Positions 1-48,508 of a stretch of 57,986 bases of DNA are shown piece after piece (the stretch's first letter is position 1; every line of letters starts with the position of its first letter). The notes under the pieces are model-generated. The model saw only the letters and a program-made list of their open reading frames with translations, had not been told where the DNA came from and did not search any database. Source of the DNA: a virus (Duplodnaviria > Caudoviricetes). Made by a program: the position numbers and the translations under genes. The stretch is taken from positions 1 through 57,986 of the IMG/VR virus record IMGVR_UViG_3300043451_000103, one strand, 5' to 3'.

Positions 1-2
1 TA

Positions 3-716
3 GCAGCTGCACTTGCTGATAATCCAAACTATGCAACTGACATGGCTGCACAGCTATCTACAGCAGATTCAAATGCTCAGGGATATGCTAGTACAGCTCA
101 GACTAATGCAGAAACTTATGCTTCTGGATTAGTCGGACAGGAGGTGATTGACCGTAACTCTGCAATTTCAACTGCTATCAATGCACTTATTACAGATGAT
201 GTTGAAGAGGGTACTGTTAATCTATATTTCACTGCTGAGAGGGCAATCAGTGCAGTTGGTGGAACCATTGGTGACGCAATTAATGCACTGACAACAAACG
301 ACATCGAAGAGGGATCCTCCAACCTCTACTTTACCGATGCTCGTGCTGTGTCAGCACTTGAAGCAGTAGTTCCAAACTTTACAGAGATTGATATTAACTC
401 TGTTGCAACTCAGGTTGCTGCAACTCAATCAGTTGCTGTAGCTAGTCAGGTAGTTGCACACCAGTTTGCAAACTCAGCACACCGTTCAGCTGAATATACA
501 GTCAAGGTGGCTCATGGATCACACACTGAACTTTCAAAGGTAATGATTACTCTTGATTCTTCAGACAACGTTGCTATCACAGAGTATGCAATTGTTGGAA
601 CAAATGGTTCAGCATCAACAATTTCTGCTGATGTAAATGCTGGAAACGTAAGACTGCTTGTTACAACAGCTAACAACAACTCTATCGTTACAGTAGTAGG
701 AACACTTATCGCTTAA
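3..716 (+). CDS. Virion fibre/structural protein, 5'-truncated
   Basis: Frame is open from position 3 (AAALADNPNYATDM, resembling the DTLxELAAAL..D.N.AT fibre motif), upstream of the ATG at 42. Two LTTxDxxEGxxNLYFTxxRA repeats. Confidence 0.7.
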   Translation, partial: AAALADNPNYATDMAAQLSTADSNAQGYASTAQTNAETYASGLVGQEVIDRNSAISTAINALITDDVEEGTVNLYFTAERAISAVGGTIGDAINALTTNDIEEGSSNLYFTDARAVSALEAVVPNFTEIDINSVATQVAATQSVAVASQVVAHQFANSAHRSAEYTVKVAHGSHTELSKVMITLDSSDNVAITEYAIVGTNGSASTISADVNAGNVRLLVTTANNNSIVTVVGTLIA

Positions 717-740
717 GATAATTTAAAGGGAGTATAGTAG

Positions 741-1202
741 ATGGCAACAGTAAACAAGGATTTCAAGGTTAAACATGGAATTCAGGTAGCAGAAGGTGGT
801 GTATTTGGTGGCCCAGTGGTGGCATCAGATCCAACTGATGATACTCATGTAGTAACACGTGGGTATTTGAATTCACAAGCATCTGGTATTACTGTTGCCT
901 CTACTGCTCCTGAAAGTCCAGCCACAGGTAAGATGTGGTTTGATACAGTAACAAAAAGAATTAACATTTATGATGAAACAAATGGTTGGATGACAGTAGC
1001 CAACATTGATGATACGTTGACAGTGCCTCAGCACATTCACGATACATCTATTGGTGGTAATGGACTAATTACAACTAGTTTCCGTGAAGGTGGGTCAATC
1101 CCAGCAAGCCCTATGTCTAGTGGAATTGATGGCGGTAGCCCATCATCAACAGAGTTTACTCTAATTTTTGATGGTGGATCAGTTACTGATAATTTTAACT
1201 AA
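741..1202 (+). CDS. Small virion structural/fibre-associated protein
   Basis: RBS AAGGGAG; TAPESPATGKMWFDT fibre motif; C-terminal DGG repeats. Confidence 0.6.
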   Translation: MATVNKDFKVKHGIQVAEGGVFGGPVVASDPTDDTHVVTRGYLNSQASGITVASTAPESPATGKMWFDTVTKRINIYDETNGWMTVANIDDTLTVPQHIHDTSIGGNGLITTSFREGGSIPASPMSSGIDGGSPSSTEFTLIFDGGSVTDNFN

Positions 1203-1259
1203 AAATAGGATATAATATAAGTATTTGGTGCATAATTGCACTATTGGAGGAGAATATAA

Positions 1260-2903
1260 ATGGCAACAAGAATGCAGCAACGCAGAGGAACTGCAGAGCA
1301 GTGGACATCTGCTAACCCAGTACTAGCAGCTGGTGAAATCGGTTTTGAAACTGATACCAATCAGTTTAAGATGGGTGATGGCACCACTACCTGGGCAAAC
1401 TTGTCATACTTTAAGAACCTAGAAGATCTAGGTGGAAGTCTTGATGACTATATTCTCCTTACAGAAAAGGGTGCAGCTAATGGTGTAGCTACACTTGATG
1501 GCACTGCACAGATTCCTGTTACACAACTTGCTAATCTTATTCACAATGCCCCAAATACTTTAGATACTCTTAATGAAATTGCTGCAGCAATTACTGATGC
1601 AAATGGTATTGTAAATACTGCAATTGAATCAGCTATTGATGCTGAGGTTATTGCAAGAAACTCTGCAATTACTACTGCTAATGACACTATTAGCACCAGA
1701 ATTGATGGAGTTGACACAAGAATTGACGGAATTGACACAAGAATTAATGGCGTTGATGCAACAATCCTAGGTCTAACTACAGATGCAGTCCCTCAAACTG
1801 AAACAAATCAGTATTTTACAAATGAGAAAGCACAAGATGCTGTAGCATCAATGATTTCTGGTTCTGGTGGTATTACTGCAACATATAATGATACAGCAAA
1901 CACACTAACCATTGCAACTGACTCTACAATTGCTACTACATCTGGAGTAGCAACTGCAGTTTCTAATCACAACTCTGCAACCACTAACGTGCACGGTATT
2001 TCAGATACTGCCAACCTAGTCTATACAAATGATTCACGTCTTTCAGATACACGTACACCAACTGATAATACAGTAGCTACTGGAAAGATCGTTGATGGAG
2101 CAGTAACATCTGCAAAGATTGCTGATGGAACAATTGTTAATGCTGACATTAATGGTTCAGCTGCAATTGCAACATCTAAGATCGCTGGGCTTGACTCTGC
2201 TCTTGCAGCTAAGGCCCCTCTAGCAGCACCAGCACTTACTGGAAATGCTACAGCAGAAAACCTTACAATTTCAGGTAATCTAACTGTAAACGGTACAACT
2301 ACAACTGTATCATCTGCAAACCTAGAGCTTACAGACTCACTAATCTACCTATCATCAACACAGTACGATACAGATATTGTAGATATTGGTATCTTTGGTG
2401 CATATGGAGATGCAAATGCTGGACACTTCCACACTGGTCTTGTTCGTGATGCCTCAGATGGCAAGTGGAAGCTTATCTCTGGTGGCTCAGAACCTACGAG
2501 CAACGTTGTTGATTTCTCAACAGCAACATATGACACCGTTAAACTAGGCGGAGTTGAATTCTCGGACGGTACTCAGGTTAAAGCAGGAGTTCCATCGCTA
2601 ACTACTATTAACCAGCAAACAGGTGCATATACTACTGTTCTAACAGACCGTGATAAGCTTATTGAGGTTAACTCAGCTTCAGGAGTTACAGTTACAATTC
2701 CAACAAATGCTTCAGTAGCATATCCAGTAGGAACATCATTTGATATTCTTCAAACTGGAGCAGGACAGATTACAATTGCTGGAGCAGCAGGTGTAACTGT
2801 AAATGCAACACCAGGACTAAAGCTACGTACTCAGTGGTCATCTGCAACTCTATTTAAGAGAGCTACAGATACTTGGGTAGTATATGGCGACTTGTCAGCA
2901 TAG
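1260..2903 (+). CDS. Tail fibre-like protein with N-terminal Mtd_N/hyaluronidase-like domain
   Basis: N-terminus QQRRGTAEQWTSANPVLAAGEIGFETDTNQFKMGDG; APNTLDTLNEIAAA motif; KIxDGxV repeats; RBS GGAGGAG. Confidence 0.75.
   Translation: MATRMQQRRGTAEQWTSANPVLAAGEIGFETDTNQFKMGDGTTTWANLSYFKNLEDLGGSLDDYILLTEKGAANGVATLDGTAQIPVTQLANLIHNAPNTLDTLNEIAAAITDANGIVNTAIESAIDAEVIARNSAITTANDTISTRIDGVDTRIDGIDTRINGVDATILGLTTDAVPQTETNQYFTNEKAQDAVASMISGSGGITATYNDTANTLTIATDSTIATTSGVATAVSNHNSATTNVHGISDTANLVYTNDSRLSDTRTPTDNTVATGKIVDGAVTSAKIADGTIVNADINGSAAIATSKIAGLDSALAAKAPLAAPALTGNATAENLTISGNLTVNGTTTTVSSANLELTDSLIYLSSTQYDTDIVDIGIFGAYGDANAGHFHTGLVRDASDGKWKLISGGSEPTSNVVDFSTATYDTVKLGGVEFSDGTQVKAGVPSLTTINQQTGAYTTVLTDRDKLIEVNSASGVTVTIPTNASVAYPVGTSFDILQTGAGQITIAGAAGVTVNATPGLKLRTQWSSATLFKRATDTWVVYGDLSA
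1695..1757 (+). repeat. 3 x 21-nt coding tandem repeat (TRIDGVD/TRIDGID/TRINGVD heptads)
   Basis: Read directly from the sequence. Confidence 0.85.
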
Positions 2904-2929
2904 TTAGATTTAGAATAGGAAGTATATAG

Positions 2930-3721
2930 ATGAGTAAAAGAGCTGGAAAGCATTCACAGCAAGCAAATGACTTCTTGCAGCCATTGGCACCAACTAGCGT
3001 TGTGGCTACTGACGTTGGAACTGGTAGAGCATTTAATGATGGTGCTGCATCTGTAGCGTTTTCACTACCATCCAATTCACAACCAGCAATATCATATACT
3101 GTTACTGCATCAACTGGTCAAACTGCAACTGGAGCATCTTCTCCAATTGTGGTTGGTGGTATTGCATCTGGTGCTACACCAACATTTACTGTTACTGCTA
3201 CAAACTCATATGGAACATCATCAGCATCAGTTGCATCAGCAGCTATTACTATCACAACTGTTCCAGATGTTCCAACTGGAGTGTCAGCATCATCTCCTTC
3301 TGGAGCTACATATGATACTGTTACCTGGACTGCCCCAGTAAATAATGGTGGTAAGGCAATTACTAATTATCACGTAACATCATCCGACGGTAAGGCTGGA
3401 GACACAGCATCTACAACTATTAATATTGGCCAGGAAGCTGGAACAGCTCAAACTTATCAGGTTTATGCTACAAATGCTAATGGTAACTCAGCTACTTCAG
3501 CTGCATCTGGGTCTGTAACAACCTTCTCATTTGTTCCATTCTCAGTATTCAGCTTCTTTGGAGTCTTTAGCTTCTTTGGTGTATTTGGCTTTGTGCCAAC
3601 CTTTGGAGTATTTGGTTTTGTGCCATTCTCAGTATTTGGATTCTTTGGTGTATTTGGGTTCGTTCCAACATTCAGTGTCTTTGGATTTACTCCTACATTT
3701 AGTGTATTTGGTTTTAGATAA
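2930..3721 (+). CDS. Fibronectin type III domain protein with C-terminal Phe-rich repeat tail
   Basis: Two FN3-like segments (PLAPTSVVA...FTVTATNSYGTS; PDVPTGVSA...VTWTAPVNNGGKAITNYHV...YQVYATNANGNS), then a 65-aa F/G/S/V/P/T tail. Confidence 0.8.
   Translation: MSKRAGKHSQQANDFLQPLAPTSVVATDVGTGRAFNDGAASVAFSLPSNSQPAISYTVTASTGQTATGASSPIVVGGIASGATPTFTVTATNSYGTSSASVASAAITITTVPDVPTGVSASSPSGATYDTVTWTAPVNNGGKAITNYHVTSSDGKAGDTASTTINIGQEAGTAQTYQVYATNANGNSATSAASGSVTTFSFVPFSVFSFFGVFSFFGVFGFVPTFGVFGFVPFSVFGFFGVFGFVPTFSVFGFTPTFSVFGFR
3524..3718 (+). repeat. Coding repeat: 8 x F-[S/G]-V-F-[S/G]-F with VP/VPT/TPT spacers
   Basis: Seen in the translation; codons vary synonymously between units. Confidence 0.9.
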
Positions 3722-3741
3722 TCACATAAGTCTCTGCTATG

Positions 3742-3750
3742 GTGTATAAT
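3742..3750 (+). promoter_or_regulatory. Putative -10 promoter element for the oxygenase cluster
   Basis: GTGTATAAT (TATAAT 3745-3750) in the intergenic gap; no -35 seen. Confidence 0.5.
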
Positions 3751-3772
3751 ATATACATACATAGAACGGAGT

Positions 3773-4438
3773 ATGAGGATGTATAAGGACCAAACTCCCC
3801 TACGAAGCATAAGCAAGACAACGCAGGGGCACAAATTTTTTGAACGTTACCTTAATAATGATCTAGATGTGTTGACAAAAGAGCTACAGTCTAGATATGA
3901 GCTGATTGAGCAGGCTAAGCTTCCAGGTGTGACACCAGTAAGCCCTTTTGAAGCATGGAAAGATTCTAATAGTATCTCAACAATGAAGTGGAGACAGTAC
4001 AATGTTTTCCAATTCCATATTGATGGAATCTATGAGCTATATAAGGCTATTGGTGATATGGTTAGAGAAGCCTGTGATCACTATGAAATTGACTTTGAAG
4101 AACAAAAGTTTATGATTCAGGGATGGTTTAATATTAATCACTCTGGAAATGGAAAGCTTAACTGGCACGAACATGGTGGTCCAGGAGCACCTGACTTCCA
4201 TGGATATTATTCAGTTGCAGCAGAGCCATCATCAACCCATTACATTGTTTTTGACAATGAGGTTGAAAATATTAATAAAAATAACCGTGCTATTCTTTCA
4301 GAAATGGGACATCCACACGCAATGGGTGATTGGTCATGGGATGGTCCAAGAATTACTGTTGCATATGATGTAACTCCACTAGAGTATCTAAAACGTGGAG
4401 GATATTCTCAAGAACAGCATTGGATTCCATTACGATGA
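3773..4438 (+). CDS. Putative His-rich 2OG-Fe(II)/cupin-fold oxygenase (TIGR02466-like), paralog 1
   Basis: GWFN...WHEH...HGYY...HPH...RITVAYD, matching the HxH...H...RIS-type DSBH pattern. Confidence 0.65.
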   Translation: MRMYKDQTPLRSISKTTQGHKFFERYLNNDLDVLTKELQSRYELIEQAKLPGVTPVSPFEAWKDSNSISTMKWRQYNVFQFHIDGIYELYKAIGDMVREACDHYEIDFEEQKFMIQGWFNINHSGNGKLNWHEHGGPGAPDFHGYYSVAAEPSSTHYIVFDNEVENINKNNRAILSEMGHPHAMGDWSWDGPRITVAYDVTPLEYLKRGGYSQEQHWIPLR

Positions 4439-5112
4439 TTTCTATGAACAAGCCACCACAAAAATTTTTTGAAAGATATCTAGATGTCACACAAGAAGAT
4501 CTAGATAATTTGTATGATTTTTGCATTGCTCGTGAAAAAGATATGCTTGATGGAAAGTTTCCAGGAATTGCCTCAGAAGAAGCAAAGTCATATTATGAAA
4601 AAGGCGGTATGACTACTAGAACTTTGGGAAAGTATAATGTTTTTCAATTGCATCACCCAGTAATAAGAAAGTTGCTTGGTGCTGTAAGAGATATGACAAA
4701 AGAAGCTTGCGAATACTACGGTACCGATTTTGAGTCAGAAGCATACTATATTCAAGGTTGGATTAATATAGAACCAGCTGACCATGGAGATGCAGAGTTT
4801 TATGCACAAACAATGATTGAGCCTAATCTTCACGAACATTGTGGTGGATTGGGAATTCCTGATCTGCATGGGTACTTTTCTGTATTTGCAGAACCATCTG
4901 TAACACATTATAGAATTGACAAGGTGACTCCATTTGAAAATATTAATAAAAACTTCAGAGCAGTGCTTTCTGAAACTGGTCACCCACATACACGTGGATG
5001 GTGGGGTAACCATGATAAGCGTAGAATCACAATAGCTTACGATACCAGAAGTATTCATGATATTTCTGACGGAGATGCTGGATTGGAACAACATTGGATA
5101 CCTCTAGTATAG
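4435..5112 (+). CDS. Putative His-rich oxygenase, paralog 2
   Basis: GWIN...LHEH...HGYF...HPH...RITIAYD. ATG 4435 overlaps the upstream stop (ATGA); the ORF track starts at TTG 4420. Confidence 0.65.
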   Translation: MISMNKPPQKFFERYLDVTQEDLDNLYDFCIAREKDMLDGKFPGIASEEAKSYYEKGGMTTRTLGKYNVFQLHHPVIRKLLGAVRDMTKEACEYYGTDFESEAYYIQGWINIEPADHGDAEFYAQTMIEPNLHEHCGGLGIPDLHGYFSVFAEPSVTHYRIDKVTPFENINKNFRAVLSETGHPHTRGWWGNHDKRRITIAYDTRSIHDISDGDAGLEQHWIPLV

Positions 5113-5759
5113 TTAAAGATCATAAGTTCTTCACCAGAGATCTGTCAATAGATCTTTCAAAACTATTAAACTGGACTATTGATCTTGATAATAAGATCAG
5201 ATCTGGTAAGTTTAAAATAGGTGCAAGTAAAGAAATTCTTGATATTTATAAAAATCAAGCTTCTGGTGCAGGCACTGCACTATTATCTCATTATAATATT
5301 TTTGAAATGGGTAATTCAGATCTTAATATTCTAAAAAATGCAATAAATGATGCATTGCTAGAAGCTTGTAATTATTACGGTATTGACTATGATTCTGAAG
5401 AGTGGTACCTGCATGGATGGTATAACAGAAATGATAAAGATGTCATGTGGGATGTTTCTCCTATTGATAATGAAGATAAGTGGCACGAACATATGAATGG
5501 TGTTGGTGCACCAGTATTTCATGGTTATTATTGTGTAAATGCAGAACCATCCGTAACTGTATACAAGATATTTAAGAATCCTGAAAATATTAAGGTTAAT
5601 GTAAATAAAAATAATAGAATGGTTTTATCAGAGGTAGGGCATCCACATGGCATGGGTAATTGGAGAGTGGATGATACAAGGATTACTTTAGCATATGATG
5701 TAGCTCCAAGAGCATATATTAGTGATGAAGATGCACAAACATGGACAAGGCTTAACTAA
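5094..5759 (+). CDS. Putative His-rich oxygenase, paralog 3
   Basis: GWYN...WHEH...HGYY...HPH...RITLAYD. TTG start is needed to include the conserved HKFFxRxL N-terminal motif. Confidence 0.65.
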   Translation: MDTSSIVKDHKFFTRDLSIDLSKLLNWTIDLDNKIRSGKFKIGASKEILDIYKNQASGAGTALLSHYNIFEMGNSDLNILKNAINDALLEACNYYGIDYDSEEWYLHGWYNRNDKDVMWDVSPIDNEDKWHEHMNGVGAPVFHGYYCVNAEPSVTVYKIFKNPENIKVNVNKNNRMVLSEVGHPHGMGNWRVDDTRITLAYDVAPRAYISDEDAQTWTRLN

Positions 5760-5914
5760 TGAAAAATTGGATCCTCAGAATAAAATGTTTTATACTAGGG
5801 CATAGAGTTGTTCAAGGTACAAAGTGTCCAGTAACTGGAATAGTTAGATTGGACTGTTTATCTTGTGGAGACTCTAATATGCCAAAACACAGCGGTGAAA
5901 GTAGATTTAAATGA
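5759..5914 (+). CDS. 51-aa Cys/His-rich small protein (DUF1660-like, possible Zn binder)
   Basis: Not in the ORF track. MKNWILRIKCFILGHRVVQGTKCPVTGIVRLDCLSCGDSNMPKHSGESRFK; TAATG and ATGA overlaps with both neighbours. Confidence 0.7.
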   Translation: MKNWILRIKCFILGHRVVQGTKCPVTGIVRLDCLSCGDSNMPKHSGESRFK

Positions 5915-6438
5915 ATAAGACAGATCAAATTAAATATATTAAAGGTTTTGTGCCAAAAGATGTAGTTGATAAAATTCATGCATACTCAGTAAAGCATGAT
6001 TCAGAGTTCACAGAATACGGTAACAATGAAAAAGAGTTTACCGTAAATGTATTTAAAGATATGACACAGGAAACAAATGATATTCGTGCACTAGTAACAG
6101 AGTGGGGGATGAAAGTTTATGAGTTTGTTCTTGAAAACTATGGAGATAATTTTAAGCCATTTGATCCTATGATGTCTCATATTGCTAGATTTGAGCCAGG
6201 ATGGGGAATGCATGAACATTTTGATGCTGGCAAACCAAATGATATTGCAACATTAATTTATATAAATAATGACTATTTGGGTGGAGATATATACTTCCCA
6301 GAATATGGTATATCTCATAAGCCAGAGCCAGGAGACCTTCTTACATTCCCAGATAATCCAGACTATGTACATGGAGTTAAGTCAATTTCTGAGGGTATTA
6401 GGTATACAACTCCACGCTGGTTTACACGTATAGTATGA
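5911..6438 (+). CDS. Prolyl 4-hydroxylase-like 2OG-Fe(II) oxygenase
   Basis: HFD...YINNDYLGGDIYFP...PEPGDLLTFP...HGV...GIRYT canonical motifs. Confidence 0.85.
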   Translation: MNKTDQIKYIKGFVPKDVVDKIHAYSVKHDSEFTEYGNNEKEFTVNVFKDMTQETNDIRALVTEWGMKVYEFVLENYGDNFKPFDPMMSHIARFEPGWGMHEHFDAGKPNDIATLIYINNDYLGGDIYFPEYGISHKPEPGDLLTFPDNPDYVHGVKSISEGIRYTTPRWFTRIV

Positions 6439-6453
6439 TAAAATAGATGTACA

Positions 6454-9400
6454 ATGACTACATCTTTAAGCCTTTATTCATCTAAAATTCTAAGTGAGCA
6501 TCCACTAGGTCACTGGCCACTTCAGGATAAAGCAGACTACGTTTCTATGCTTTCAAAAACTAAGAGCGACTTGTCTGGATGGACAAAGGTTTCTAGTGAT
6601 ACAGATGTTTCCTTAGTATCAGCATCAGATGCTCCAATGTCTTCAGAATCAGTTTTTAAGATATCAACCCATAACCTTGGATCTTCAAGCATTAAAACTG
6701 TAACAGTACTGAGCGATACAATATCAGATTTCTCGCAACTAGATAGTTTTCTATCTACATTCACACTATCAACATTCTTATATTCATATGCTGAAAACAC
6801 CCAATCTGTTTCTATTGGCTTTGTATATGATGATCCAACATATGGGACAGCAAGAGTCTCTAAGCGATTTACAATGCCGTTTGGAAATAAGTGGGTATTT
6901 CTATCTGAAACTTTTGATAGGCCATATAACCTATCTTCAGAATTTAAACTTTTTATAGAAATTGAATTTTTATCAAATAATACAACTGATGAGGTTTCGT
7001 TTTTAATTAATGGCCTATCTCTTGGCCAATGGTCAGAGGAATTTAACTCTACGTCTACTGGTATCATTCCAGAAGAGGTTATTGAAAATATTTATAGTCT
7101 TGGTCCAAATACAAAAGCGGTAAAGCTATTAGCATCTGCAGAATCAACAAAAGACGGATATTCAATTTGTAAGGGAACAAATATTCTTGGAAAAAAGAAC
7201 GGAATTCCTATGACATATGGGTCCGAAGCTTCATTCCAGATATCCCCAAATACTACTGGGAAGCCATCTGTGGTAATTCCTGGACTAGGGTTTTTAAACA
7301 AATCAGGAGCAAATAGAAACTACACCTTTGAGGCATGGATTAAAGTAGATCATTCACAAGATTCAGAGTTTAGGATAGTTGGTCCAGTAGCTTCAGATGA
7401 TGGGTTGTATGTAGATGGTCCTTTCTTAAAGCTAAGAATTGGAGATTTGCACACATCACATTATGTTGGAGAATGGTACAGGCCAATGCTTGTTCACATA
7501 ACAATTTCTAAAGATAGTGTAACCCTATTAGTAAATGGAGAGATTGTCGGAACCATTTCTATATCAAATGTTTCTTTACAGTTCCCTGACGAGGTCCTAG
7601 ATGGCATTGAGCAAGACTGGATTGGAATATATTCAAATTCTAAAATGTCAATATTTGAAATAAATGCTGTTTCTATATATACATATGTTGTTTCTAACAC
7701 AATTGCAAAAAGAAGATGGATCTATGGTCAAGGTGTAGAAAATCCAGAATCACTAAATGTTGCATATGGTGGTAAAAGTATTGCAGTAGATTATCAGTTT
7801 GCAAAGTATTCAAGTAATTATTCATACCCTAAGATTGGGGCATGGTCTAAAGGCCTTTCAAATAACCTTGCCACCAGTGGAGATTACTTAAAGATTCCTT
7901 CTTACAAGGGTATGTCTATAATATCTGCTTCAGCTACACAAGAAGCAATTTTAAAAGAAATGCTTAATGTTCAAAATGAAACTGAAAAATTTATTAAACT
8001 TCCTGAAAACTCTTATGGCTATTATGAAAATCTAGATATTCTGCCAGATGGAATAGAGTCTCTACATGTAGTTTATAAGACAATGTCCAATATAACAAAG
8101 CAAGAAACTCTCCTAGAACTAAAAGACAAGCTTACTGGAGATTACTTGTCTGTAAAATTATTTGATGGAAACATTAAATATTCTATAAATATTCTTGGCA
8201 AAACTTCCACACTAATTGAAACAATAGCTTATGTACATGGAGAGCAGTTTGCAATTGCAATTCACCTAAAACGAATGGCTCAATACTTTGGAAACGAGGT
8301 TGCTCTATTTTTATCAAAGTACAAGACCCTATCTTTATATCTTGGTGGAACTGGAAACAATGATACATTTTCTGGAAATATTTATTCAGTCTCTTTCTCA
8401 AATCTTCATGCTACAGAAAAATTATCAGAATATTTTGCTCCAAATGGATTAGTCTGGGATGCTGAGACAATTCAGAATGCTACTGGAGAATATGATGCTG
8501 GAATGTATAGTACTACATTCTGGGAATTTTTACTAGATGGAGGAAATCCAGCACAACATGCAAACTCTGGACTTATTCAAACATCCTATGCTAGCTATAA
8601 GGTATCTCCATATGCAGATAAAAGCACACTATATTTAGATGGATTTGTTAATGGAAGCTGGACTTCGTCAATTCCATTATCATATTTTGGAAAATACTCA
8701 AATACTCAATCTGGCAAGAAGACATACGATCTTGACTTTATTCAGTTTAACATTTCATACCCATCTCCTGCAAGCTCAGTAGCTATAACAGAATCTGATG
8801 CAGCATGGAGCTATCAAGATTTGTCATTAAAATTTGCAATACCATCACAAAAAAGATATAGTGATTTAGATAACCATCTATATACTGGATATGTAGACTA
8901 TACTGACCTTCAACATAACACTAGACAAACATATAAGTTTGATACTTCTAGGTCAATAATTAAAACATATATTTTCTTTAAGGATAATGCAATTGTAGAT
9001 AATTTTTCATCTAAATATTATTCTAATATAATTTCTGCACCAAGAGATGGGGTTATTCAGCCAGGGTCAGAATGGGTAAATACAAAATATGAAGTAGTAG
9101 ACAATATGATTATTTATCCACCAGCAAATGTAAAATTTGAAAATATTAATATCTATACAGAAATTGTAGTGTCTGTAGACAAAATATCAGAAAAACCAAT
9201 TGCTATTAACGGCCTTGAGTTATCTTCAGTCGTTTTGGATAATAATATAAGAACTCCAATTGGAACTAAATATGGAATTGACATTTATCCATTTACTGAA
9301 AATGGATTCTATTATGACTATAAGTCAAAAAATCCATTTAGCATTTATAAAGGAAGCACTCCATATTTATACCTTACAAAAACTAGCGGAATAAAGCTAA

Positions 9401-10116
9401 AGGGGTTATTTAATGGTAGACAGTCTAGAGGTATAGAAATTGCTATTAACCAAGAAAAGGTAGATAACTATAGGGTTATTGCAATGCAATGTTTTGCAAT
9501 GTATGACGATGACTTCTTCCCATATAGTCCTACCGAAATATTTGAGATTGTATCTAATAATCTACATCTAAAATTCTATTTACAGGCAACACATCCAGAT
9601 GGTCTTCGTGGAAAAATATATGCAATCAACACCAAGACTGGACAGGTTGAAAATGGAATTGGATACTATATTAATGGCAATATTGTAAAAGACCCAGTGC
9701 TTACTATTAAGCAGTGGGCTGCCATTGGTATTGGTTTTGCAAATTATTTGGATTGTAGCTTAATTGGAGGTGCCCTAAGAATAACTGGACCACTAATGAT
9801 TAACAATATATCTTATTACAATTCGTCAAGACTGCAGCAGGTACAAAGAATTTCTGCAAGGCCATGGTTCAGCGTTAGAGAATCTGGAAGAATAAAGTTT
9901 GACTGGGTTGACTGGAAGGGAATCTTTAGATGGTTTGAGGTGCTGGTTTTGTCTAGCAAGAACTTCTACGGTGTTGATCCTTCTGATATTTATGCTGCTT
10001 ACGTTGGGTCTTCTAAAATAACTGTAGATGACAAATCAATTTTAAGGTTATTCAGAAGCAAATATAGAGTCATCTCAAACTCTGTAGCACAGCTTTTTAC
10101 TATTAATTCTGTTTAA
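6454..10116 (+). CDS. Large virion structural protein with LamG/concanavalin-like segment
   Basis: 1220 aa; SEHPLGHWPLQD N-terminus, YTFEAWIK, VTLLVNGE; sits upstream of the portal gene. Confidence 0.55.
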   Translation: MTTSLSLYSSKILSEHPLGHWPLQDKADYVSMLSKTKSDLSGWTKVSSDTDVSLVSASDAPMSSESVFKISTHNLGSSSIKTVTVLSDTISDFSQLDSFLSTFTLSTFLYSYAENTQSVSIGFVYDDPTYGTARVSKRFTMPFGNKWVFLSETFDRPYNLSSEFKLFIEIEFLSNNTTDEVSFLINGLSLGQWSEEFNSTSTGIIPEEVIENIYSLGPNTKAVKLLASAESTKDGYSICKGTNILGKKNGIPMTYGSEASFQISPNTTGKPSVVIPGLGFLNKSGANRNYTFEAWIKVDHSQDSEFRIVGPVASDDGLYVDGPFLKLRIGDLHTSHYVGEWYRPMLVHITISKDSVTLLVNGEIVGTISISNVSLQFPDEVLDGIEQDWIGIYSNSKMSIFEINAVSIYTYVVSNTIAKRRWIYGQGVENPESLNVAYGGKSIAVDYQFAKYSSNYSYPKIGAWSKGLSNNLATSGDYLKIPSYKGMSIISASATQEAILKEMLNVQNETEKFIKLPENSYGYYENLDILPDGIESLHVVYKTMSNITKQETLLELKDKLTGDYLSVKLFDGNIKYSINILGKTSTLIETIAYVHGEQFAIAIHLKRMAQYFGNEVALFLSKYKTLSLYLGGTGNNDTFSGNIYSVSFSNLHATEKLSEYFAPNGLVWDAETIQNATGEYDAGMYSTTFWEFLLDGGNPAQHANSGLIQTSYASYKVSPYADKSTLYLDGFVNGSWTSSIPLSYFGKYSNTQSGKKTYDLDFIQFNISYPSPASSVAITESDAAWSYQDLSLKFAIPSQKRYSDLDNHLYTGYVDYTDLQHNTRQTYKFDTSRSIIKTYIFFKDNAIVDNFSSKYYSNIISAPRDGVIQPGSEWVNTKYEVVDNMIIYPPANVKFENINIYTEIVVSVDKISEKPIAINGLELSSVVLDNNIRTPIGTKYGIDIYPFTENGFYYDYKSKNPFSIYKGSTPYLYLTKTSGIKLKGLFNGRQSRGIEIAINQEKVDNYRVIAMQCFAMYDDDFFPYSPTEIFEIVSNNLHLKFYLQATHPDGLRGKIYAINTKTGQVENGIGYYINGNIVKDPVLTIKQWAAIGIGFANYLDCSLIGGALRITGPLMINNISYYNSSRLQQVQRISARPWFSVRESGRIKFDWVDWKGIFRWFEVLVLSSKNFYGVDPSDIYAAYVGSSKITVDDKSILRLFRSKYRVISNSVAQLFTINSV

Positions 10117-10134
10117 TATGGTATACTAGTGGTT

Positions 10135-10515
10135 ATGAAAAGACAAAAACCACGATTTCCTGGTCAGGTTGGAGAAACCAAGGTACAGGTCATACAAGAG
10201 AATTTTTCTTTATTTGGAACATATGTTTGGATGAAGCCAAATGGAAAGCCATTTACAGATGGAAGCGGTAATGCCCTATCTATTGAAGGCATGAAAGATG
10301 ATAAAGCTAGAATTAAAGAGTTAGCTGATGCTGCAAAATATTGGGGGCAGCCAGAAGGTCGTGCCGTATTCTATCCAAACATGCGAAAGATTTCAGACGA
10401 AGAACACTCTGAGCAGGTAGACAGAATGAACCAGGGGCTTATTCCATCAATGAATGACCTAGGTGCACTTATTGCTGCAAAGAAAACCCTTGATACCTAT
10501 GGAGACGTTGAGTAA
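10135..10515 (+). CDS. Hypothetical protein, probably leaderless
   Basis: ATG 10135 lies 7 nt after TGGTATACT with no SD (track start is GTG 10129); coupled to portal by TAATG. Confidence 0.65.
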   Translation: MKRQKPRFPGQVGETKVQVIQENFSLFGTYVWMKPNGKPFTDGSGNALSIEGMKDDKARIKELADAAKYWGQPEGRAVFYPNMRKISDEEHSEQVDRMNQGLIPSMNDLGALIAAKKTLDTYGDVE

Positions 10516-12158
10516 TGTCAGATTATGAAGAAGTAAAGTATATCCATGCATCTCTTCAGGATGCTGAGACAGAGCAGGATCTATTTAAAGATCATGACCC
10601 ATTTATGAAAAATTGGGATGAACTAAAAAATTACTCTGGCCTAGAAAAGAATTTTAAGCGTCGTACAGAAAGACTTTCAAAGTCAACTGATGTGCTTATT
10701 GAAAATAGAACAGTAAATACTGGTATTGATATTAATGATTTGGGATATCAGGATAGTGCTCTTGCGGTAAATCGTGGTAAAGATGATGCTCGTTCAAAGG
10801 TAATTAACCCAGGGCGTGTATATCGTAATGGCTATGGAATGTTTGATGTCATCACTCCTCCGTGGAACCTGTACGAGCTAGCAAACTACTATGATACATC
10901 ATTTGCTAATCACGCAGCAATTGATGCCAAGGTAGAAAATATTGTTGGCCTAGGCTACGACTTTGAAGTTTCAAAGAGAACAATGATGTCACTTGACGCA
11001 CATCCAAACGAAAGTGCAAAAGAAAAAGCACAAAAGCGTATTGAAAGAATGAGGGTAGAGCTTCGTGATTGGCTAGAAAGTCTAAACCTGGACGAGTCAT
11101 TTACTGAGGTAATGTCAAAGGTAATGACAGATTATGAGTCTACTGGAAATGGATACCTTGAAATTGGTAGAACAGTTAAGGGGGAGATTGGTTATGTAGG
11201 TCATATCCCATCTACAACAATGCGTGTACGTCGTTTGCGTGATGGATATCTTCAGATTATTGGCAATAGAATTGTTTATTTTAGAAATTTCCAGGCAACT
11301 AACCCAAACCCAATTACTGCAGATCCACGCCCAAATGAGATTATTCATTTTAAGTCATACTCTCCACTAAACACATTCTATGGTGTTCCAGACATTATTT
11401 CAGCTATTTCAGCACTTCAGGGAGATATGCTTGCATCACAATACAATATTGATTACTTTACAAACAAGGGTGTGCCACGTTATGTTGTAACTCTTAAGGG
11501 TGCTAAGCTTTCTGAAGATGCAGAAGACAAGATGTTTAGATTCCTTCAGACTAGCCTAAAGGGTTCAAACCACAGAACACTATACATTCCACTTCCTGGA
11601 GATTCAGATACTAACAAGGTAGAGTTTAAGATGGAAGCTGTAGAGACTGGTACACAGGAAGCATCATTTAATGAGTACCGTATTCGTAATCGTGATGATA
11701 TCTTGGTAGCTCACCAAGTTCCACTATCTAAGATTGGTGGTGGAGATTCTGCAGCAATTGCTGCTGCTCTAGCACAGGATCGTACTTTTAAGGAACAGGT
11801 AGCTCGTCCTAGACAAGATGCTATGCAAAAGATCATCAATAGACTTATCCGTGAAAAGACAGATATCCTTGAGTTTAAGTTTAACGAACTTACCCTTACT
11901 GATGAAATTGCACAGTCTCAAATTCTTGAACGATATGTTAAGAACAAGATTATGGTTCCAGATGAGGCACGTGAAATTCTTGGAATGCCTGCTCGTCCAG
12001 ACGGTGATGGTGGCAAGCCTTTGGAAGTAAAGCCACCAGAAGCACCTAATAGTACTGGAAATGATGCCAGAGATGCACAGCGTGCAAATAATGCATCAGA
12101 TAGTCCTGCAACAATTGCAGGTAGAAATCCAAAAGGTGAAGGAAGAGCTAGTCAATAA
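10515..12158 (+). CDS. Portal protein
   Basis: DYESTGNGYLEIGR, NEIIHFK, YGVPDI, YFTNKGVP, ILVAHQVP motifs of PBSX/HK97-type portals. Confidence 0.92.
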   Translation: MSDYEEVKYIHASLQDAETEQDLFKDHDPFMKNWDELKNYSGLEKNFKRRTERLSKSTDVLIENRTVNTGIDINDLGYQDSALAVNRGKDDARSKVINPGRVYRNGYGMFDVITPPWNLYELANYYDTSFANHAAIDAKVENIVGLGYDFEVSKRTMMSLDAHPNESAKEKAQKRIERMRVELRDWLESLNLDESFTEVMSKVMTDYESTGNGYLEIGRTVKGEIGYVGHIPSTTMRVRRLRDGYLQIIGNRIVYFRNFQATNPNPITADPRPNEIIHFKSYSPLNTFYGVPDIISAISALQGDMLASQYNIDYFTNKGVPRYVVTLKGAKLSEDAEDKMFRFLQTSLKGSNHRTLYIPLPGDSDTNKVEFKMEAVETGTQEASFNEYRIRNRDDILVAHQVPLSKIGGGDSAAIAAALAQDRTFKEQVARPRQDAMQKIINRLIREKTDILEFKFNELTLTDEIAQSQILERYVKNKIMVPDEAREILGMPARPDGDGGKPLEVKPPEAPNSTGNDARDAQRANNASDSPATIAGRNPKGEGRASQ

Positions 12159-19748: not shown

Positions 19749-22700
19749 ATGGCTGATATCCAATCAAATATCCGAGTCAATATAGATACTGCCGAAGCTC
19801 TGGCATCTATTAAGGCTCTCCAAAAGCAGATATCAACCTTCCAAAAGGAGATGGCAAGTTCTTCAACTGCCAACGCCATTGCTGCAAAGAATCTACAAAA
19901 GTCATTAATTGATGACATCAATGCAACTGGAAAATTCTCCGCAAGCATCAAAACAGTTAGTTCTACAACTGATACTTTTACAAGATCACTTGAGAAAAAT
20001 AAGCTCTCGCTAGGAGAGTACTTCCGCTATGGAATGGCTTCTAGCAAGAGCTTTTCTCGCATGTTCCAGACCGAATTTGATACGGTTAACAAAGTTGCTC
20101 GTGAAAGAGTAAAAGATTTACAAACACAATACATCTCTCTTGGTAGAGATGCATCAGGAGCATTGAGATCAATTGCTATTAGACCACTTGCTCTTGACAT
20201 GGAAGATCTTGGAACCAAGTCACAAATTGCTGCACAAAGAGCACAAATCTTTAACCAGGTTTTGAAGCAGGGATCAACAAATCTTCTAAACTTCGGTAAG
20301 AATACTCAATGGGCTGGTCGTCAGCTTATGGTTGGTTTTACAATTCCTCTTTCAATTTTTGGATCTGCTGCAGCTCAAGAATTTAAGAAAATTGAAGAAG
20401 CATCAATCAAATTCAAGCGTGTGTATGGAGATGCTTTTACACCTGCTGAGCAAACCAATGCAATGCTTGATCAAATTAAAAAGGTTGGTCTTGAGTTAAC
20501 AAAATATGGTGTAAGCCTTGATCAAACTCTAAGTCTTGCTGCTGACGCTGCTGCAATGGGTAGCACTGGACAACAATTAATTGCACAGGTTCAGCAATCA
20601 ACTAAGCTTGCTGTTCTTGGACAAACAGGAACACAAGAAGCATTACAAACAACTATGTCTCTGACAAATGCTTTTGGTTATTCAACTCAGCAACTTGCAG
20701 ATAAGACAAACTTCCTTAACGCAGTAGAAAACCAAACTGTTCTTAGTATTCAAGATCTGACAGAGGCTATTCCAAAAGCTGGACCAGTTATCAAGCAACT
20801 TGGTGGTAGCGTAGAGGACCTATCATTCTTCATGACTGCTATGAAGGAAGGTGGAATTAATGCATCTGAAGGTGCTAACGCACTAAAGTCAGGTCTTGCA
20901 TCACTGATTAACCCAACTGCAAAAGCTAGCCAAATGCTTCTTGGTATGGGAATTGATATGCAAAAGATTCTTGATACTAATAAGGGAAATGTATCTGGAG
21001 TTGTTGTAGATTTTGCCAAGGCACTAGATAAGCTTGACCCAACAACAAGAGCACAAGCAATTGAGCAGCTATTTGGTAAGTTCCAGTTTGCACGTCTATC
21101 AACATTGTTTAAGAACGTCGTAGCAGAAGGTACTCAAGCACAGCGTGTACTTGAACTAAGTAACATGACTGCTTCTGATCTTGCTGCATTGTCCGCAAAA
21201 GAGTTGTCAACAGTAGAGCAATCACCTCTATACAAGTTCCAAGCTGCACTTGAAAAGTTCCAAGCAGCAATGGCTCCAGTAGGAGAGCAATTCATGAAGA
21301 TGGTTACACCATTTATTGAATTTGGAACAAAGATTTTAAATATGTTTAATGGCATGACTGATGGAGCAAAAGGTTTTATTACCACAATCGTAGGTCTTGC
21401 AGGTGTTGTAGCTCCAGTATTTATTATGGCATTTGGTCTTATTGCTAACGCTATCGCAAACGGTATGAAGGGATTCATATTCCTTAAGAATGCATTGCAG
21501 GGAACTCTAAAAGAGACTACAGACCTTGGTGAACAAACCCAATACATGACAGCAGAACAGCTTCAGGCCGCTGCTGTTGCAGCCTCTCTTGACCAAGTGC
21601 ATGGAAAACTTATTCAGACATTTACTTCTGAAGCAGGAGCAATCGATAGACTTCGTAATGCAATGGAAATGGCTGCAGCTGCTCAAACCAGATTTGGTGC
21701 TCCAAGAGTTTCTGGTGGAGTTAAGCCAAAGAATTTTGCTAAGGGTGGAATGGCTGTATCAGGTCCTGGAGGACCAACTGGAGATAAGATTCCTGCCAAC
21801 CTTTCAGATGGAGAGGTTGTTCTTACAGCTGATACTGTTCAGCAAAATCCAGGAATTGTTGCTGCATTACTCGGTGGTGGAAAAGTCAAGGTACCAGGAT
21901 TTGCAGGAGGAACCCCACAAGGACAACTTTCATTTGGGGATAAAGCAGTATCTATTAACGCATCTCAGCGTGCAATTGATAGAATGCAAACCATTATTAA
22001 TGGAATTGCAGATGACTTAATTAAGGTAGATCAAAAGGGTGATGTGGTTGAGAAGTTGTTTGAATCTCTTGCAACTATGTCAGAAGAAGGAAAGGTCAAT
22101 TTAAAGAAGTTCTTCCAATCATTTGCTGTTGCTGCAGAAGATGTTAGTGGTCAGAATATTTCTAATCAAGTAAATAAATTCTATGAAAATCAGCTTAGCG
22201 TAAAGACAAAGCCAATGAAGTACTCTGCTACTGGTGTTGGAACTATTCAGCAACAGGCAGATAGAGCAGGAAGAGTAGATGAGTTAGAAAGAGCTAAGGC
22301 TCGTCTTGCTGCAGAAGAATCTCTAGGACTACCTGGTGGTCAGTACCAAATTGACAGAGCACACAGAGTGCCAGTTAGTGGTTCTGCAAAAGCATTCCCA
22401 GAAGCATGGGATATGAAGGGTGTAAACCTACAAACACACACTGAAAATCAAATATCTAACTATCTTGCAGGAGAGCAAAAGGTAAAGGCTTTCTATGACA
22501 AGTATATGGCAGAGCTTGAAAAAATGCGTTCAGAAGGAAAGGTTAGTGAAGAACAATACCTTTCTATCATGGATAAGGTAAATAATAACCTTGCACTTTC
22601 AGAAACAGAACTTGCTACTCAGGCAAAAATACTTGACAAAATAACATCAGAAGACGAGCAAGCCTGGGAAAGCTCAAAGGCAATGAAGAATGTAAAGAAT

Positions 22701-48202: not shown

Positions 48203-48508
48203 TTGGCAAGAAAAAAAATATCTGCAGCACCAACTAATAGCAAGTTCTCAAGAGAGTATTCAATGCTAATTGACGGGTTTGAGATAGCTCGTGGTGATAT
48301 AATTAAAGTAAGTGGACAATATGGACTAAAGTTCAAATTTGACTCTGTAGTTACAAATACACACACTGGAGCAATCTGGGTAGACTGTTTCGAAGTGTTT
48401 CGTGGACAGAGTCAATGCTTTAGATCATTTGAGCCAGGGCAAATAAAGAGAATACCTCAGAGAGGTAAGAGAGGAAGAAGACGTGTTGCCAACAGTGAAG
48501 CACTATGA
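48203..48508 (+). CDS. Hypothetical SH3-like basic protein
   Basis: ORF with TTG start; GDIIKV..., WVDC, FRSF. Confidence 0.6.
   Translation: MARKKISAAPTNSKFSREYSMLIDGFEIARGDIIKVSGQYGLKFKFDSVVTNTHTGAIWVDCFEVFRGQSQCFRSFEPGQIKRIPQRGKRGRRRVANSEAL

Follow-up and report, generated by a model that had tools for sequence, protein, structure and literature searches.

The C-terminal, phenylalanine-rich repeat array of a small accessory protein of a phage fibre cassette is a real, translated protein module; it is conserved, strongly selected and previously undescribed, and it is shared by many related phages. The DNA analyzed (the window, 57,986 nucleotides) is part of the genome of a siphovirus from freshwater with kinship to Streptomyces phages. 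Our proposal for the function, tentative and somewhat short of probable, is a cohesive role as an aromatic stalk or anchor, by which heads that bind the cell wall are held in a bundle on the virion: The water-excluding, Phe-rich arrays of several chains would pack together. The partners could be further copies of the protein itself and, in most relatives, also copies of a sister protein that combines a PASTA head, which binds peptidoglycan, with an array of matching flavor. A multivalent adhesin, assembled from several wall-binding heads, would thereby form on the phage particle. A Hint/bacterial-intein-like domain, by which the array is extended in about half of the relatives, might act as a self-removing cap or solubilizing chaperone of the array; the protein of the window would represent the cap-less form that ends simply in Arg. 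The location on the virion, the self-association, the co-assembly with the sister protein and the self-cleavage of the Hint-like domain are what we infer from the observations below.

Protein layout and genomic neighborhood

The gene (Table 1) carries an AGGA-type ribosome-binding site 9-14 nt 5' of its ATG and ends with TAA at 3719-3721; a promoter/terminator scan of positions 2700-4000 yielded counts no higher than in shuffled sequences. The encoded protein consists of an N-terminal peptide, two FN3 domains and the aromatic array. In the alignment of 54 sequences, residues K3, G6, S9, N13, D14, L16, P18 and P21 of the N-terminal peptide are invariant or nearly so, and this segment may serve as a docking peptide. 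Both sandwiches of the head are predicted by AlphaFold2 with pLDDT values above 90 (strands within residues 22-92 and 116-182, respectively); the second matches Pfam PF00041 at E 1.4e-5 (25.7 bits versus a cut-off of 25). Membership in the fn3 family, based on the passed gathering score and the two predicted beta-sandwiches, is confined to the head; fn3 was the sole Pfam match of the protein at E<=0.1, no PHROG or NCBIfam family was matched, and no profile match to known cell-wall-binding repeats (e.g. choline-binding CW_binding_1) was obtained. In its FN3 tandem, the protein is similar to minor tail proteins from phages of Microbacterium, Arthrobacter, Rhodococcus and Streptomyces.

Table 1. 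Features of the window around the aromatic array (positions refer to the window).
Feature	Position	Strand	Basis
Fibre-cassette gene, cut by the record end	3/42-716	+	weak PHROG minor-tail match
Fibre-cassette gene	741-1202	+	weak PHROG minor-tail match
Upstream fibre protein, 547 aa, Mtd_N domain	1260-2903	+	Pfam Mtd_N, E 1.5e-14; PHROG tail/fibre families
Array-protein gene	2930-3721	+	263 aa and TAA stop, from ORF list
N-terminal peptide, residues 1-30	2930-3019	+	alignment of 54 sequences; AlphaFold2 helix 9-16
First FN3-like beta-sandwich, approximately residues 22-105	2993-3244	+	AlphaFold2; Pfam fn3 at the same position in relatives
Second FN3 domain, residues 114-192	3269-3505	+	Pfam PF00041; AlphaFold2
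Aromatic repeat array, 65 residues	3524-3718	+	translation; C-terminus of the 263-aa protein
Three tandem paralogs, 221, 230 and 221 aa	3773-5759	+	2OG/Fe(II)-oxygenase (double-stranded beta-helix) fold
2OG-Fe(II) oxygenase, prolyl-4-hydroxylase-type Pfam family	5911-6438	+	PF13640

The Mtd_N fibre gene is located directly upstream of the array gene in 78 of 80 related loci, and the two fibre-cassette genes preceding it are syntenic in 63 and 66 of these loci, respectively. The three paralogs downstream (present in 62 of the 80 loci) were matched by neither Pfam, NCBIfam nor PDB profiles and were identified by fold search only: AlphaFold2 modeling gave a pLDDT of 92.4, and Foldseek comparison with the PDB returned 3bvc, ThoJ (6zyk), 2rg4, FtmOx1, AsqJ and prolyl hydroxylases (E 2e-5 to 6e-4); H132, H134, H143, H182 and R193 are invariant in their alignment. 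The subsequent prolyl-4-hydroxylase (P4H)-type gene matches its family at E 4.9e-6 (27.9 bits versus a cut-off of 27) and is present in 51 of the 80 loci.

Composition and predicted structure of the array

A preliminary description of this DNA had noted a 65-residue tail with 26 Phe and no charge before the terminal Arg, and translation reproduced it exactly: The array comprises F 26, V 12, G 10, S 7, P 5, T 4 and R 1; besides the reported lack of Leu, Ile and Ala, it is devoid of Asp, Glu, Lys and His, and its sole charged residue is the last one, Arg263 (AGA), directly before the stop. Eight x-V-F-[G/S]-F cores are connected by joints of F, VP(T) or TP(T) in units of 6, 8 and 9 residues, with a Phe-to-Phe spacing of 1 (3 times), 2 (9), 3 (10) or 4 (3) and 10 FG dipeptides in total. 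This composition is far beyond chance; all other stop-free 65-codon stretches in the six frames of the window hold at most 11 Phe, and the Phe frequency of 0.040 in long plus-strand frames gives a binomial P(>=26 of 65) of approximately 1e-19. At the DNA level, the repeats are 72-92% matched according to Tandem Repeats Finder and 63-81% identical to the reference copies; Phe is encoded by 9 TTC and 17 TTT codons, and four synonymous codons are used for Val, four for Gly and three for Ser.

The mean Kyte-Doolittle hydropathy is +1.51 for the array versus -0.07 for the head, and the summed Wimley-White interfacial free energy of the array is approximately -23.9 kcal/mol. The array is no normal transmembrane helix, as had been supposed from its composition: The longest run free of Pro and Gly extends over 7 residues, and with 5 Pro and 10 Gly in 65 positions there is no stretch of about 20 consecutive helix-compatible hydrophobic residues as in a transmembrane helix or tail anchor.

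AlphaFold2 (54 sequences) assigned pLDDT values of 40-51 and no secondary structure to residues 200-263, which is compatible with disorder in the model; no ordered assembly of the array is predicted, an observation that speaks against the proposed stalk. Structure prediction as monomer and trimer had been suggested beforehand; the monomer run gave the above result, whereas the trimer run returned no answer (the homo-trimer prediction for residues 110-263, performed without controls, scored 0.00 versus a mark of 0.42 and is evidence neither way). A search of the ESM Atlas with residues 196-263 gave no usable feature match, the structural rows (TM 0.22-0.35) being meaningless. The regular beta-solenoid considered in the preliminary description is unsupported in view of the irregular Phe spacing, the different repeat periods among relatives (3, 5, 6 and 8) and the missing AlphaFold2 strands; on the computational evidence, a cross-beta state may still be adopted. 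The lack of a constant repeat period, within the array and across relatives, likewise weighs against the proposed stalk and is better explained by selection on composition than by a defined zipper.

Selection on the array and variation among relatives

Synonymous codon differences between the units had been taken as a sign of protein-level selection, and the comparison with three relatives (L003, L004, L009) bears this out: pS of the array is 0.52-0.55 and pN 0.035, and the resulting pN/pS of approximately 0.065 is below the 0.23-0.28 of the N-terminal/FN3 head of the same genes; the array is therefore more tightly constrained than the folded domains. At least 1146 relatives of the protein were found at E<=1e-3 among 8000 scored candidates. 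The aromatic array is present in all 178 distinct relatives with a length of 23-116 aa and an aromatic fraction of 0.31-0.63; it lacks any charged residue in 146 of them, the protein ends within 12 residues past the array in 85, and a domain of 150-200 aa follows in 88, while the arrays of P0121, P0122, L091 and L099 are positioned between folded domains. Besides the xVFxF type of the window, a Tyr-rich flavor (TPYSF) and (GAF)n arrays occur, the latter (L044, L052, L066, L069, L105) being a formal Gly-X-Y repeat with the collagen feature of Gly at every third residue; almost every Pro of the arrays is preceded by S, T, V, A or G.

As anticipated in the preliminary description, the unit number varies among strains: Apart from the range of lengths, contigs of three other studies span the array and carry an in-frame allele that is 24 nt shorter. 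The reading as a mis-assembly, a slippage product or a chance-open frame might draw on the low complexity of the sequence and on an antisense ORF (3463-3834, 123 aa) that is open across the array too, but it is already refuted and of vanishing probability, as synonymous changes in the plus frame exceed non-synonymous ones about 15-fold per site, 579 related IMG/VR stretches were confirmed, the array is kept in frame in 178 of 178 distinct proteins, and the length difference in the spanning contigs is a multiple of 3. Hence, none of the circumstances named beforehand as fatal to the description (an untranslated tail, an assembly artefact, relatives without a biased tail) was encountered.

Neither tblastn of the protein nor megablast of positions 1-12000 against 50,697 phage records gave a match, and no cultured relative with this protein family is present among these records; the long relative P0030 matched one of them via its intein-like part with 26% identity. 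The strings SPFGVFGF, FGVFGF, FSPFGF and FGFSPF were found in no paper of the literature searched, and the excerpts returned by the literature searches contained nothing on such aromatic arrays.

Hint-like domains and Cys knots

The 150-200-aa domain C-terminal to the array corresponds to the Hint/bacterial-intein-like cap; a few relatives possess a Cys knot at this position. The profile of the cap matches the bacterial intein-like domain 2lwy of the PDB (E 6e-8) and inteins. Position 1 is occupied by Cys in 17 and Ser in 6 of 23 sequences, the block A Thr is present in 21 of 23, and 15 of 23 end in HN; self-cleavage is uncertain, because the block-B His is retained in only 10 of 23 and replaced by Glu or Gln in the other 13. 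The short forms (..FSPSY, ..FSPGY) end like the pre-Cys junction of the long forms (..FSPTYF|C, ..FSPG|C). The protein of the window has no Hint domain, ending at Arg263 right after the array, and no Hint-like ORF is located downstream. A basic residue near the mature C-terminus was considered as a universal feature and rejected; it is a mere tendency (53 of 85 short forms, 28 of 62 Cys-class and 20 of 26 Ser-class forms).

Phage tailspikes and fibres are known to possess C-terminal intramolecular chaperone domains of the Peptidase_S74 type. The logic proposed for the caps, assembly aid followed by self-cutting, would be alike; this is a functional analogy only, as the Hint fold and its chemistry differ, and no Pfam S74 match was found. 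With BIL domains the caps have in common that no nucleophile-bearing C-extein of any length follows, whereas the frequent replacement of the block-B His in relatives and the absence of such a domain from the protein of the window set them apart. We know of no described BIL domain behind an aromatic repeat in a phage fibre cassette, and none was mentioned in the parts of the literature covered by our search; the Hint-like caps would be a new setting for BIL-type autoprocessing. True inteins are treated in PMC3556154.

Matched arrays in FN3- and PASTA-headed proteins

In a phmmer search with the array alone against 1.84 billion representatives, six proteins were retrieved, four of which consist of a PASTA domain and an array. 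The array flavors of the FN3- and PASTA-headed proteins match in 9 of the 10 records in which both genes were seen (L034, G001, G002, G003, G008, G010, G011, G014, L103), and so does the C-terminal cap in these nine records save G014. The 4-mer Jaccard index of FN3 and PASTA arrays is 0.22 within versus 0.085 between genomes, and with five flavor groups the observed match was reached by 1 of 120 permutations. Since 45-62% of the identical-residue codons differ between the two arrays of one genome and the longest shared DNA word comprises 12-21 nt, the matching is not due to recent gene conversion; old within-lineage duplications with subsequent purifying selection on each copy could account for it without any interaction. 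From these arrays matched between two proteins of one genome, the FG-like cohesive element, one of the options in the preliminary description, is favored on indirect grounds. However, in the complete relative G009 the PASTA protein contains (V/A)TP repeats without aromatics, whereas the FN3 protein keeps SPFGVFGF arrays; co-assembly via matched arrays therefore cannot be universal.

No PASTA gene is present within the window; going by the relatives, that of the window's phage would be located past the 5' end of the record. An obvious signal peptide is absent from the FN3 and PASTA proteins (judged by eye on the translations), and an extracellular role thus implies that the virion carries them.

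Alternative explanations and significance

Unlikely, but deserving consideration, is an insertion of the free array into a hydrophobic layer, be it the interface of the host membrane or another one, after the head has bound to the wall, with the benefit of virion anchoring or of help in triggering DNA delivery. The extreme hydrophobicity of the uncharged array, the interface-seeking character also of the Tyr-rich TPYSF flavors, the free terminus in 85 of 178 relatives and the nature of the heads (PASTA and FN3 as cell-envelope binders) are in line with it. It is opposed by the arrays embedded between folded domains, by the 88 relatives with a domain behind the array and by the non-aromatic VTP repeats at its place in G009; furthermore, Pro or Gly at least every 7 residues excludes a transmembrane helix, and plain membrane affinity leaves the lineage-matched flavors unexplained.

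Less probable still is a plain extended spacer, a Pro/Gly-punctuated linker that sets the distance between the head and the other end without specific interactions and would be the hydrophobic cousin of PT linkers and collagen-like stalks. The positionally equivalent (VTP)n of G009 and the (GAF)n arrays, the highly variable length with in-frame gain and loss of units between strains and the predicted disorder would suit such a spacer. Linkers, however, usually evolve faster than the domains they join, contrary to the pN/pS values of array and head; in the protein of the window and in the 85 relatives with a terminal array there is nothing to be linked, and a solvent-exposed chain with 40% Phe would be costly and aggregation-prone.

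There is also a slim chance that the array is an oxygenase substrate. The P4H-type enzyme and the three paralogs would then hydroxylate its Pro and/or aromatic residues, with cross-linking as a possible further step, and give rise to a modified adhesive or a stabilized fibre, comparable to collagen or mussel foot proteins; this would be compatible with the cohesive stalk. Apart from the frequency of both gene types downstream, the paralogs accompany xVFxF-type arrays in 38 of 39 loci and other flavors in 6 of 15 (54 distinct loci with at least 4.5 kb downstream; Fisher 8e-6, uncorrected for kinship), PFF-type arrays keep the P4H-type gene without paralogs, the Pro-free GAF type has neither, and the residue preceding nearly every Pro is S, T, V, A or G. 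Then again, related phages have both traits in common, which confounds the association, and at TPYSF-type loci Pro is present although no gene of the P4H type lies within 6 kb; 2OG oxygenases of unknown role are common in aquatic phages. If the oxygenases modify the arrays, a class of phage 2OG oxygenases so far without a function would receive one.

Similarly improbable, as a more elaborate variant, is a collagen-like maturation of an aromatic fibre, in which the flavor would act as a lineage-specific docking code between FN3- and PASTA-headed proteins, Pro or aromatic residues would be hydroxylated by the P4H-type enzyme and the three neighboring oxygenase-fold paralogs, and nucleation and later release of the assembly would be the task of either a Hint 'C-propeptide' that cleaves itself or a Cys knot; if true, phage particles would carry a type of proteinaceous adhesive stalk that is new.

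With regard to the cohesive stalk, arrays that are indeed cohesive and flavor-specific would provide a natural, tunable and very short protein-protein docking module. The family is large and belongs to phages of, probably, freshwater Actinomycetota; since these hosts are difficult to cultivate, the adsorption machinery of their phages has received next to no study.

Comparison with known systems

Among the known components of phage host-recognition proteins are low-complexity stalks and removable C-terminal caps; to our knowledge, an uncharged array with approximately 40% Phe that is more conserved than the adjoining folded domains is not among them. FG nucleoporins (FG/GLFG/FxFG) likewise exhibit repeated Phe-Gly motifs, no predicted fold and few or no charges, and the proposed principle, Phe-mediated cohesion between chains, may by analogy be common to both. 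Their motifs are separated by hydrophilic stretches of 10-20 residues and their Phe content is far lower, whereas the array has 40% Phe and no such spacers, being built from F, V, G, S, P, T and one R, and belongs to a phage structural cassette instead of a transport channel; the two are not homologous.

Collagen-like (Gly-X-Y) and Pro/Thr-rich stalks or linkers occur in phage fibre and actinobacterial surface proteins. The array resembles them as a low-complexity, Pro/Gly-punctuated segment of variable unit number between head and C-terminal cap, and the layout of the relatives, with a Cys knot or removable C-terminal domain and a nearby P4H-type gene, mirrors collagen maturation. In contrast to these stalks, it is hydrophobic and aromatic, not polar, and evolves more slowly than the folded head; the array of the window cannot form a collagen triple helix, because its longest Gly-x-x run comprises 3 triplets.

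FN3 and PASTA are typical weak cell-envelope binders; Ig-like/FN3 accessory domains occur on tailed-phage virions, and PASTA domains in Gram-positive penicillin-binding proteins (PBPs) and kinases. The heads of the array proteins are of the same kinds; none of the examples known to us is fused to an aromatic repeat array. In DnaJ-type co-chaperones, a G/F-rich low-complexity linker mediates intra- and intermolecular contacts (PMC12126530). This linker is cytosolic, its Phe density is far smaller, it lacks a repetitive pattern with Pro connectors, and it is unrelated to the array in sequence.

Phage and host

A prophage scan of 185,579 species genomes yielded an FN3 relative in 381 stretches; among the 79 loci kept, the array was present only in L103-L105. 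The MAG labels of these three disagree (Flavobacterium, Chitinophagaceae, Gammaproteobacteria), and they are therefore read as mis-binned phage contigs; in consequence, the prophage copies in the genomes scanned do not allow a host to be named. A search for the WhiB motif within the window was negative; whiB and actinophages are treated in PMC6802176. Complete relatives, on the other hand, encode WhiB, and the host is for this reason probably an actinobacterium (Actinomycetota).

Phenylalanine-rich tail and its constraint

Translation of the + strand at the C-terminal end of the FN3-array gene reproduced exactly the 65-residue tail of the preliminary description (F 26, V 12, G 10, S 7, P 5, T 4, R 1), with the terminal Arg, directly followed by TAA, as the sole charged residue. 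With Phe at 0.040, its background frequency, a binomial model gives a probability of about 1e-19 for at least 26 Phe in 65 residues; elsewhere in the window, all six frames considered, no stretch of 65 codons exceeds 11 Phe. Eight x-V-F-[G/S]-F cores occur in the tail along with 10 FG dipeptides, its longest run free of Pro and Gly comprises 7 residues, and at most three Gly-x-x triplets occur in succession. Due to this spacing of Pro and Gly and the few triplets, a collagen helix is ruled out for this array, as is a transmembrane helix, in agreement with the initial view that the tail does not resemble a normal one.

Features of the window and their positions
Feature	Position	Strand	Length	Remarks
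Mtd_N fibre gene	1260-2903			upstream of FN3-array gene in 78/80 loci
FN3-array gene	2930-3721	+	263 aa	tail at C-terminal end
Antisense ORF	3463-3834	-	123 aa	open across tail; likewise in related locus L034
Tail (array)	3524-3718	+	65 aa	
In-frame loss in a close strain	3589-3647		eight codons	within tail
Three tandem paralogs	3773-5759			downstream of FN3-array gene; 62/80 loci
2OG-Fe(II) oxygenase, PF13640	5911-6438			after paralogs; E 4.9e-6; 51/80 loci
Tape measure	19749-26852		2367 aa	GSGGSGGS run close to its end
LysM-domain protein	31752-32582			in tail module
Second PF13640 oxygenase (prolyl-hydroxylase-type)	48483-49223			E 3.7e-17

The synonymous codon variation reported between units was found again (Phe: TTC 9, TTT 17; Val and Gly: four codons each), the repeats being just 63-92% alike at the DNA level. 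The suspected protein-level selection became apparent in comparison with three relatives of equal tail length: pS was 0.52-0.55 and pN 0.035 in the tail, whereas pN/pS was 0.23-0.28 in the head (N-terminal peptide and two FN3 domains) of the same genes. Hence the frame is translated, and constraint is tighter on the tail than on the folded domains. Contigs of one run, which may be the source sample, were identical to the window across 2600-3766; contigs of three other studies spanned the tail with 38-64 substitutions and were 24 nt (eight codons, in frame) shorter, and the gaps listed were all located at 3493-3496 (balanced -1/+1) or inside the region of the in-frame loss. The anticipated variation in unit number thus exists (tail lengths of 64, 65 and 68 residues in close relatives), and both an untranslated tail and an assembly artefact are excluded by the purifying selection in frame and the independent contigs. 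The antisense ORF across the tail is a by-product of composition and not a gene; Phe, Gly and Val codons, when reversed, become codons for Lys, Pro, Asn and Thr, with no stops arising.

Protein family and C-terminal caps

In the AlphaFold2 prediction (54-sequence alignment), residues 9-16 form a short N-terminal helix, and two beta-sandwiches reach a pLDDT above 90; the structure prediction proposed for the tail, carried out for the monomer, yielded no secondary structure for residues 200-263 (pLDDT 40-51). Residues 1-30 are strongly conserved, and Pfam fn3 matched residues 114-192 with a score barely over the cut-off; searches of PHROG, NCBIfam and the non-FN3 Pfam families gave no match. A word-seeded search (8000 candidates scored) revealed at least 1146 relatives at E<=1e-3, whose source names were all "hypothetical protein" or accidental, and an IMG/VR scan confirmed 579 related stretches.

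When 120 listed proteins and the ORFs from 80 fetched loci were pooled, all 178 distinct sequences carried an aromatic array right behind the last FN3 domain; homologs devoid of a biased tail, which would have spoken against the preliminary description, were absent from this set. The arrays comprised 23-116 aa (median 56) with an aromatic fraction of 0.31-0.63, a pooled composition of F 37%, P 14.5%, G 14%, S 13% and V 9%, and no charged residue in 146 cases. Their repeat motifs (flavours) were lineage-dependent: SPFGVFGF, TPFGAFGF, [TV]PYSF, FFSVFG, (GAF)n, (YNF)n and PFF/PPFF. Extreme flavours were seen among L025, L044, L105, L067, L070, L076 and L077: about 56% of the aromatics are Tyr in (YNF)n, up to about 27 triplets form a formal Gly-X-Y repeat in (GAF)n, and PFF/PPFF arrays lead into (GV)n plus a Cys-rich knot. 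In the multi-array proteins (P0121, P0122, L091, L099), aromatic arrays alternate with Cys-rich modules, some with a W-x-x-W...C pattern that, we presume, recalls thrombospondin type-1 repeats; L099 has two PASTA domains.

Like the window protein, 85 of the 178 sequences end within 12 residues past the array. In 88 others a C-terminal domain of 150-200 aa comes after it, and in five a short knot rich in Cys. A profile built from 23 C-terminal domains matched the bacterial intein-like (BIL) domain 2lwy (E 6e-8), the gp41-1 intein (8e-7) and other inteins; the Pfam Intein_splicing and Hint models matched weakly in 7 and 5 of these members, respectively. Position 1 is Cys in 17 and Ser in six of the 23, the block-A Thr is present in 21 and the block-B His in 10 (otherwise Glu or Gln), and the domain has a penultimate His in 17 and a terminal Asn in 15. 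Unlike splicing inteins, the Hint-like caps are followed by one to a few residues only, a BIL-type autoprocessing layout; BIL domains are their nearest known counterpart, although the window protein has no Hint domain. Several short forms end where long forms would if cut before the Cys. Self-cleavage of the Hint-like caps is plausible; it does not concern the window protein.

A PASTA-headed protein with matching array

A search of 1.84 billion representatives with the tail only gave six matches: four have a PASTA domain over the Pfam cut-off followed by like arrays, the fifth is an FN3 relative, and the sixth is an apparently unrelated Trp/Tyr repeat protein (P0124; 255 aa, GVWGYTPSA-type repeats, E 3e-6, no Pfam family). 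In L034, the gene of a PASTA-array protein (163 aa) lies 5.9 kb upstream of its FN3-array counterpart, and SPFSVFGFR ends both proteins. With the records behind other loci and L103 searched as well, both genes were seen in 10 records, and the flavour matched in nine; in eight of these nine the cap matched too (Arg end, Cys-type Hint domain or KPYPYC knot), whereas G014 combines an FN3 protein bearing a Hint-like domain with a PASTA protein whose end is rich in Cys. Flavour differs in one case, the complete record G009, whose PASTA protein (L095, 532-1767, -) has long (V/A)TP arrays without aromatics, between small Cys-rich modules, where other genomes have aromatic arrays. No PASTA gene was found in G004-G007, G012, G013 and G015, records that are incomplete or short of upstream sequence.

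The two arrays shared 0.22 of their 4-mers within genomes versus 0.085 between genomes, and in a permutation test with five flavour groups, one genome each, the observed match was reached by 1 of 120 arrangements. Recent gene conversion as its source is ruled out, since 45-62% of the codons for identical residues differ and the longest common DNA word is 12-21 nt. Only 2.9 kb of the window precede the FN3 gene; judging from the relatives, the window's PASTA gene would be located outside the record, past its 5' end.

Genome and probable host

The window is an entire IMG/VR virus record with an estimated completeness of 53%, encoding portal, prohead protease, major capsid protein, tape measure, DnaE-type polymerase and ribonucleotide reductase. 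Its polymerase and capsid protein are 55% and 43% identical to those of Stanwilliamsviridae Streptomyces phages, the gene order is similar, and the public runs containing the stretch bear the label freshwater or riverine metagenome. WhiB, used in PMC6802176 as the actinophage marker, was over cut-off in three of five related records, including both complete-rated ones, and among 14 control genomes in Corynebacterium only; a motif search of the window found none. Based on the phage kinship, the freshwater runs and WhiB in the relatives, the host of this lineage is most likely a freshwater member of Actinomycetota. The long tape measure and the LysM-domain protein fit a phage of a Gram-positive host. 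Family-bearing phage-like contigs (L103, L104, L105) occur in MAGs labelled Flavobacterium, Chitinophagaceae and Gammaproteobacteria; these labels probably reflect binning error and are thus unfit as host evidence.

Possible function of the array

What the differently headed proteins of one phage share is the array, which is better conserved than the heads, carries no charge and is too hydrophobic for exposure. For these reasons we tentatively favor a cohesive stalk or anchor: the FN3 and PASTA heads would bind the cell envelope, the arrays would pack the chains together so that several weak binders act as one, and the Hint-like domain or Cys knot would serve as assembly cap. Both proteins would be carried on the virion, as no signal peptide is obvious in their translations (read by eye) and the genes lie among fibre genes of a phage with a Gram-positive host. 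Against a cohesive stalk stand the absence of predicted structure and of a constant repeat period, and the deviating arrays of G009. A less likely alternative is that the array inserts into the host membrane; the composition speaks for it, while the internal arrays and large C-terminal domains weaken it. A plain spacer, for which the (VTP)n and (GAF)n equivalents speak, appears more doubtful still, given the strong constraint and because half of the family has nothing beyond the array.

Nearest in composition is the FG domain of nucleoporins, from which the tail differs in having no hydrophilic spacers; nearest in architecture are collagen-like or PT-type stalks with removable C-terminal domain, whose Gly-X-Y register it lacks. 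No occurrence of the motif strings, and no earlier description of such arrays, was found in the literature searched. The array may be classed with the repeat stalks known from phage host-recognition proteins, and it could well turn out to be something more distinctive.

Gene neighborhood and oxygenases

The conserved gene order is fibre A, a small gene, the Mtd_N fibre and the FN3-array gene. The three downstream paralogs, 39-45% identical to each other, had no sequence match in Pfam, NCBIfam or PDB; a confident model (pLDDT 92) matched 2OG/Fe(II) oxygenases, among them prolyl hydroxylases and ThoJ, which modifies peptides. H132, H134, H143, H182 and R193 are invariant in 51 paralog sequences, and the H-x-H arrangement, where H-x-D/E is usual, suggests an iron site formed by three His. 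That the array is a substrate of the neighboring oxygenases is the least probable reading, albeit one that can coexist with a cohesive stalk. Paralog presence was associated with array flavour (38/39 versus 6/15), which is a lead only because the counts ignore relatedness. Altogether, five oxygenase-fold genes are present in the 58 kb of the window.
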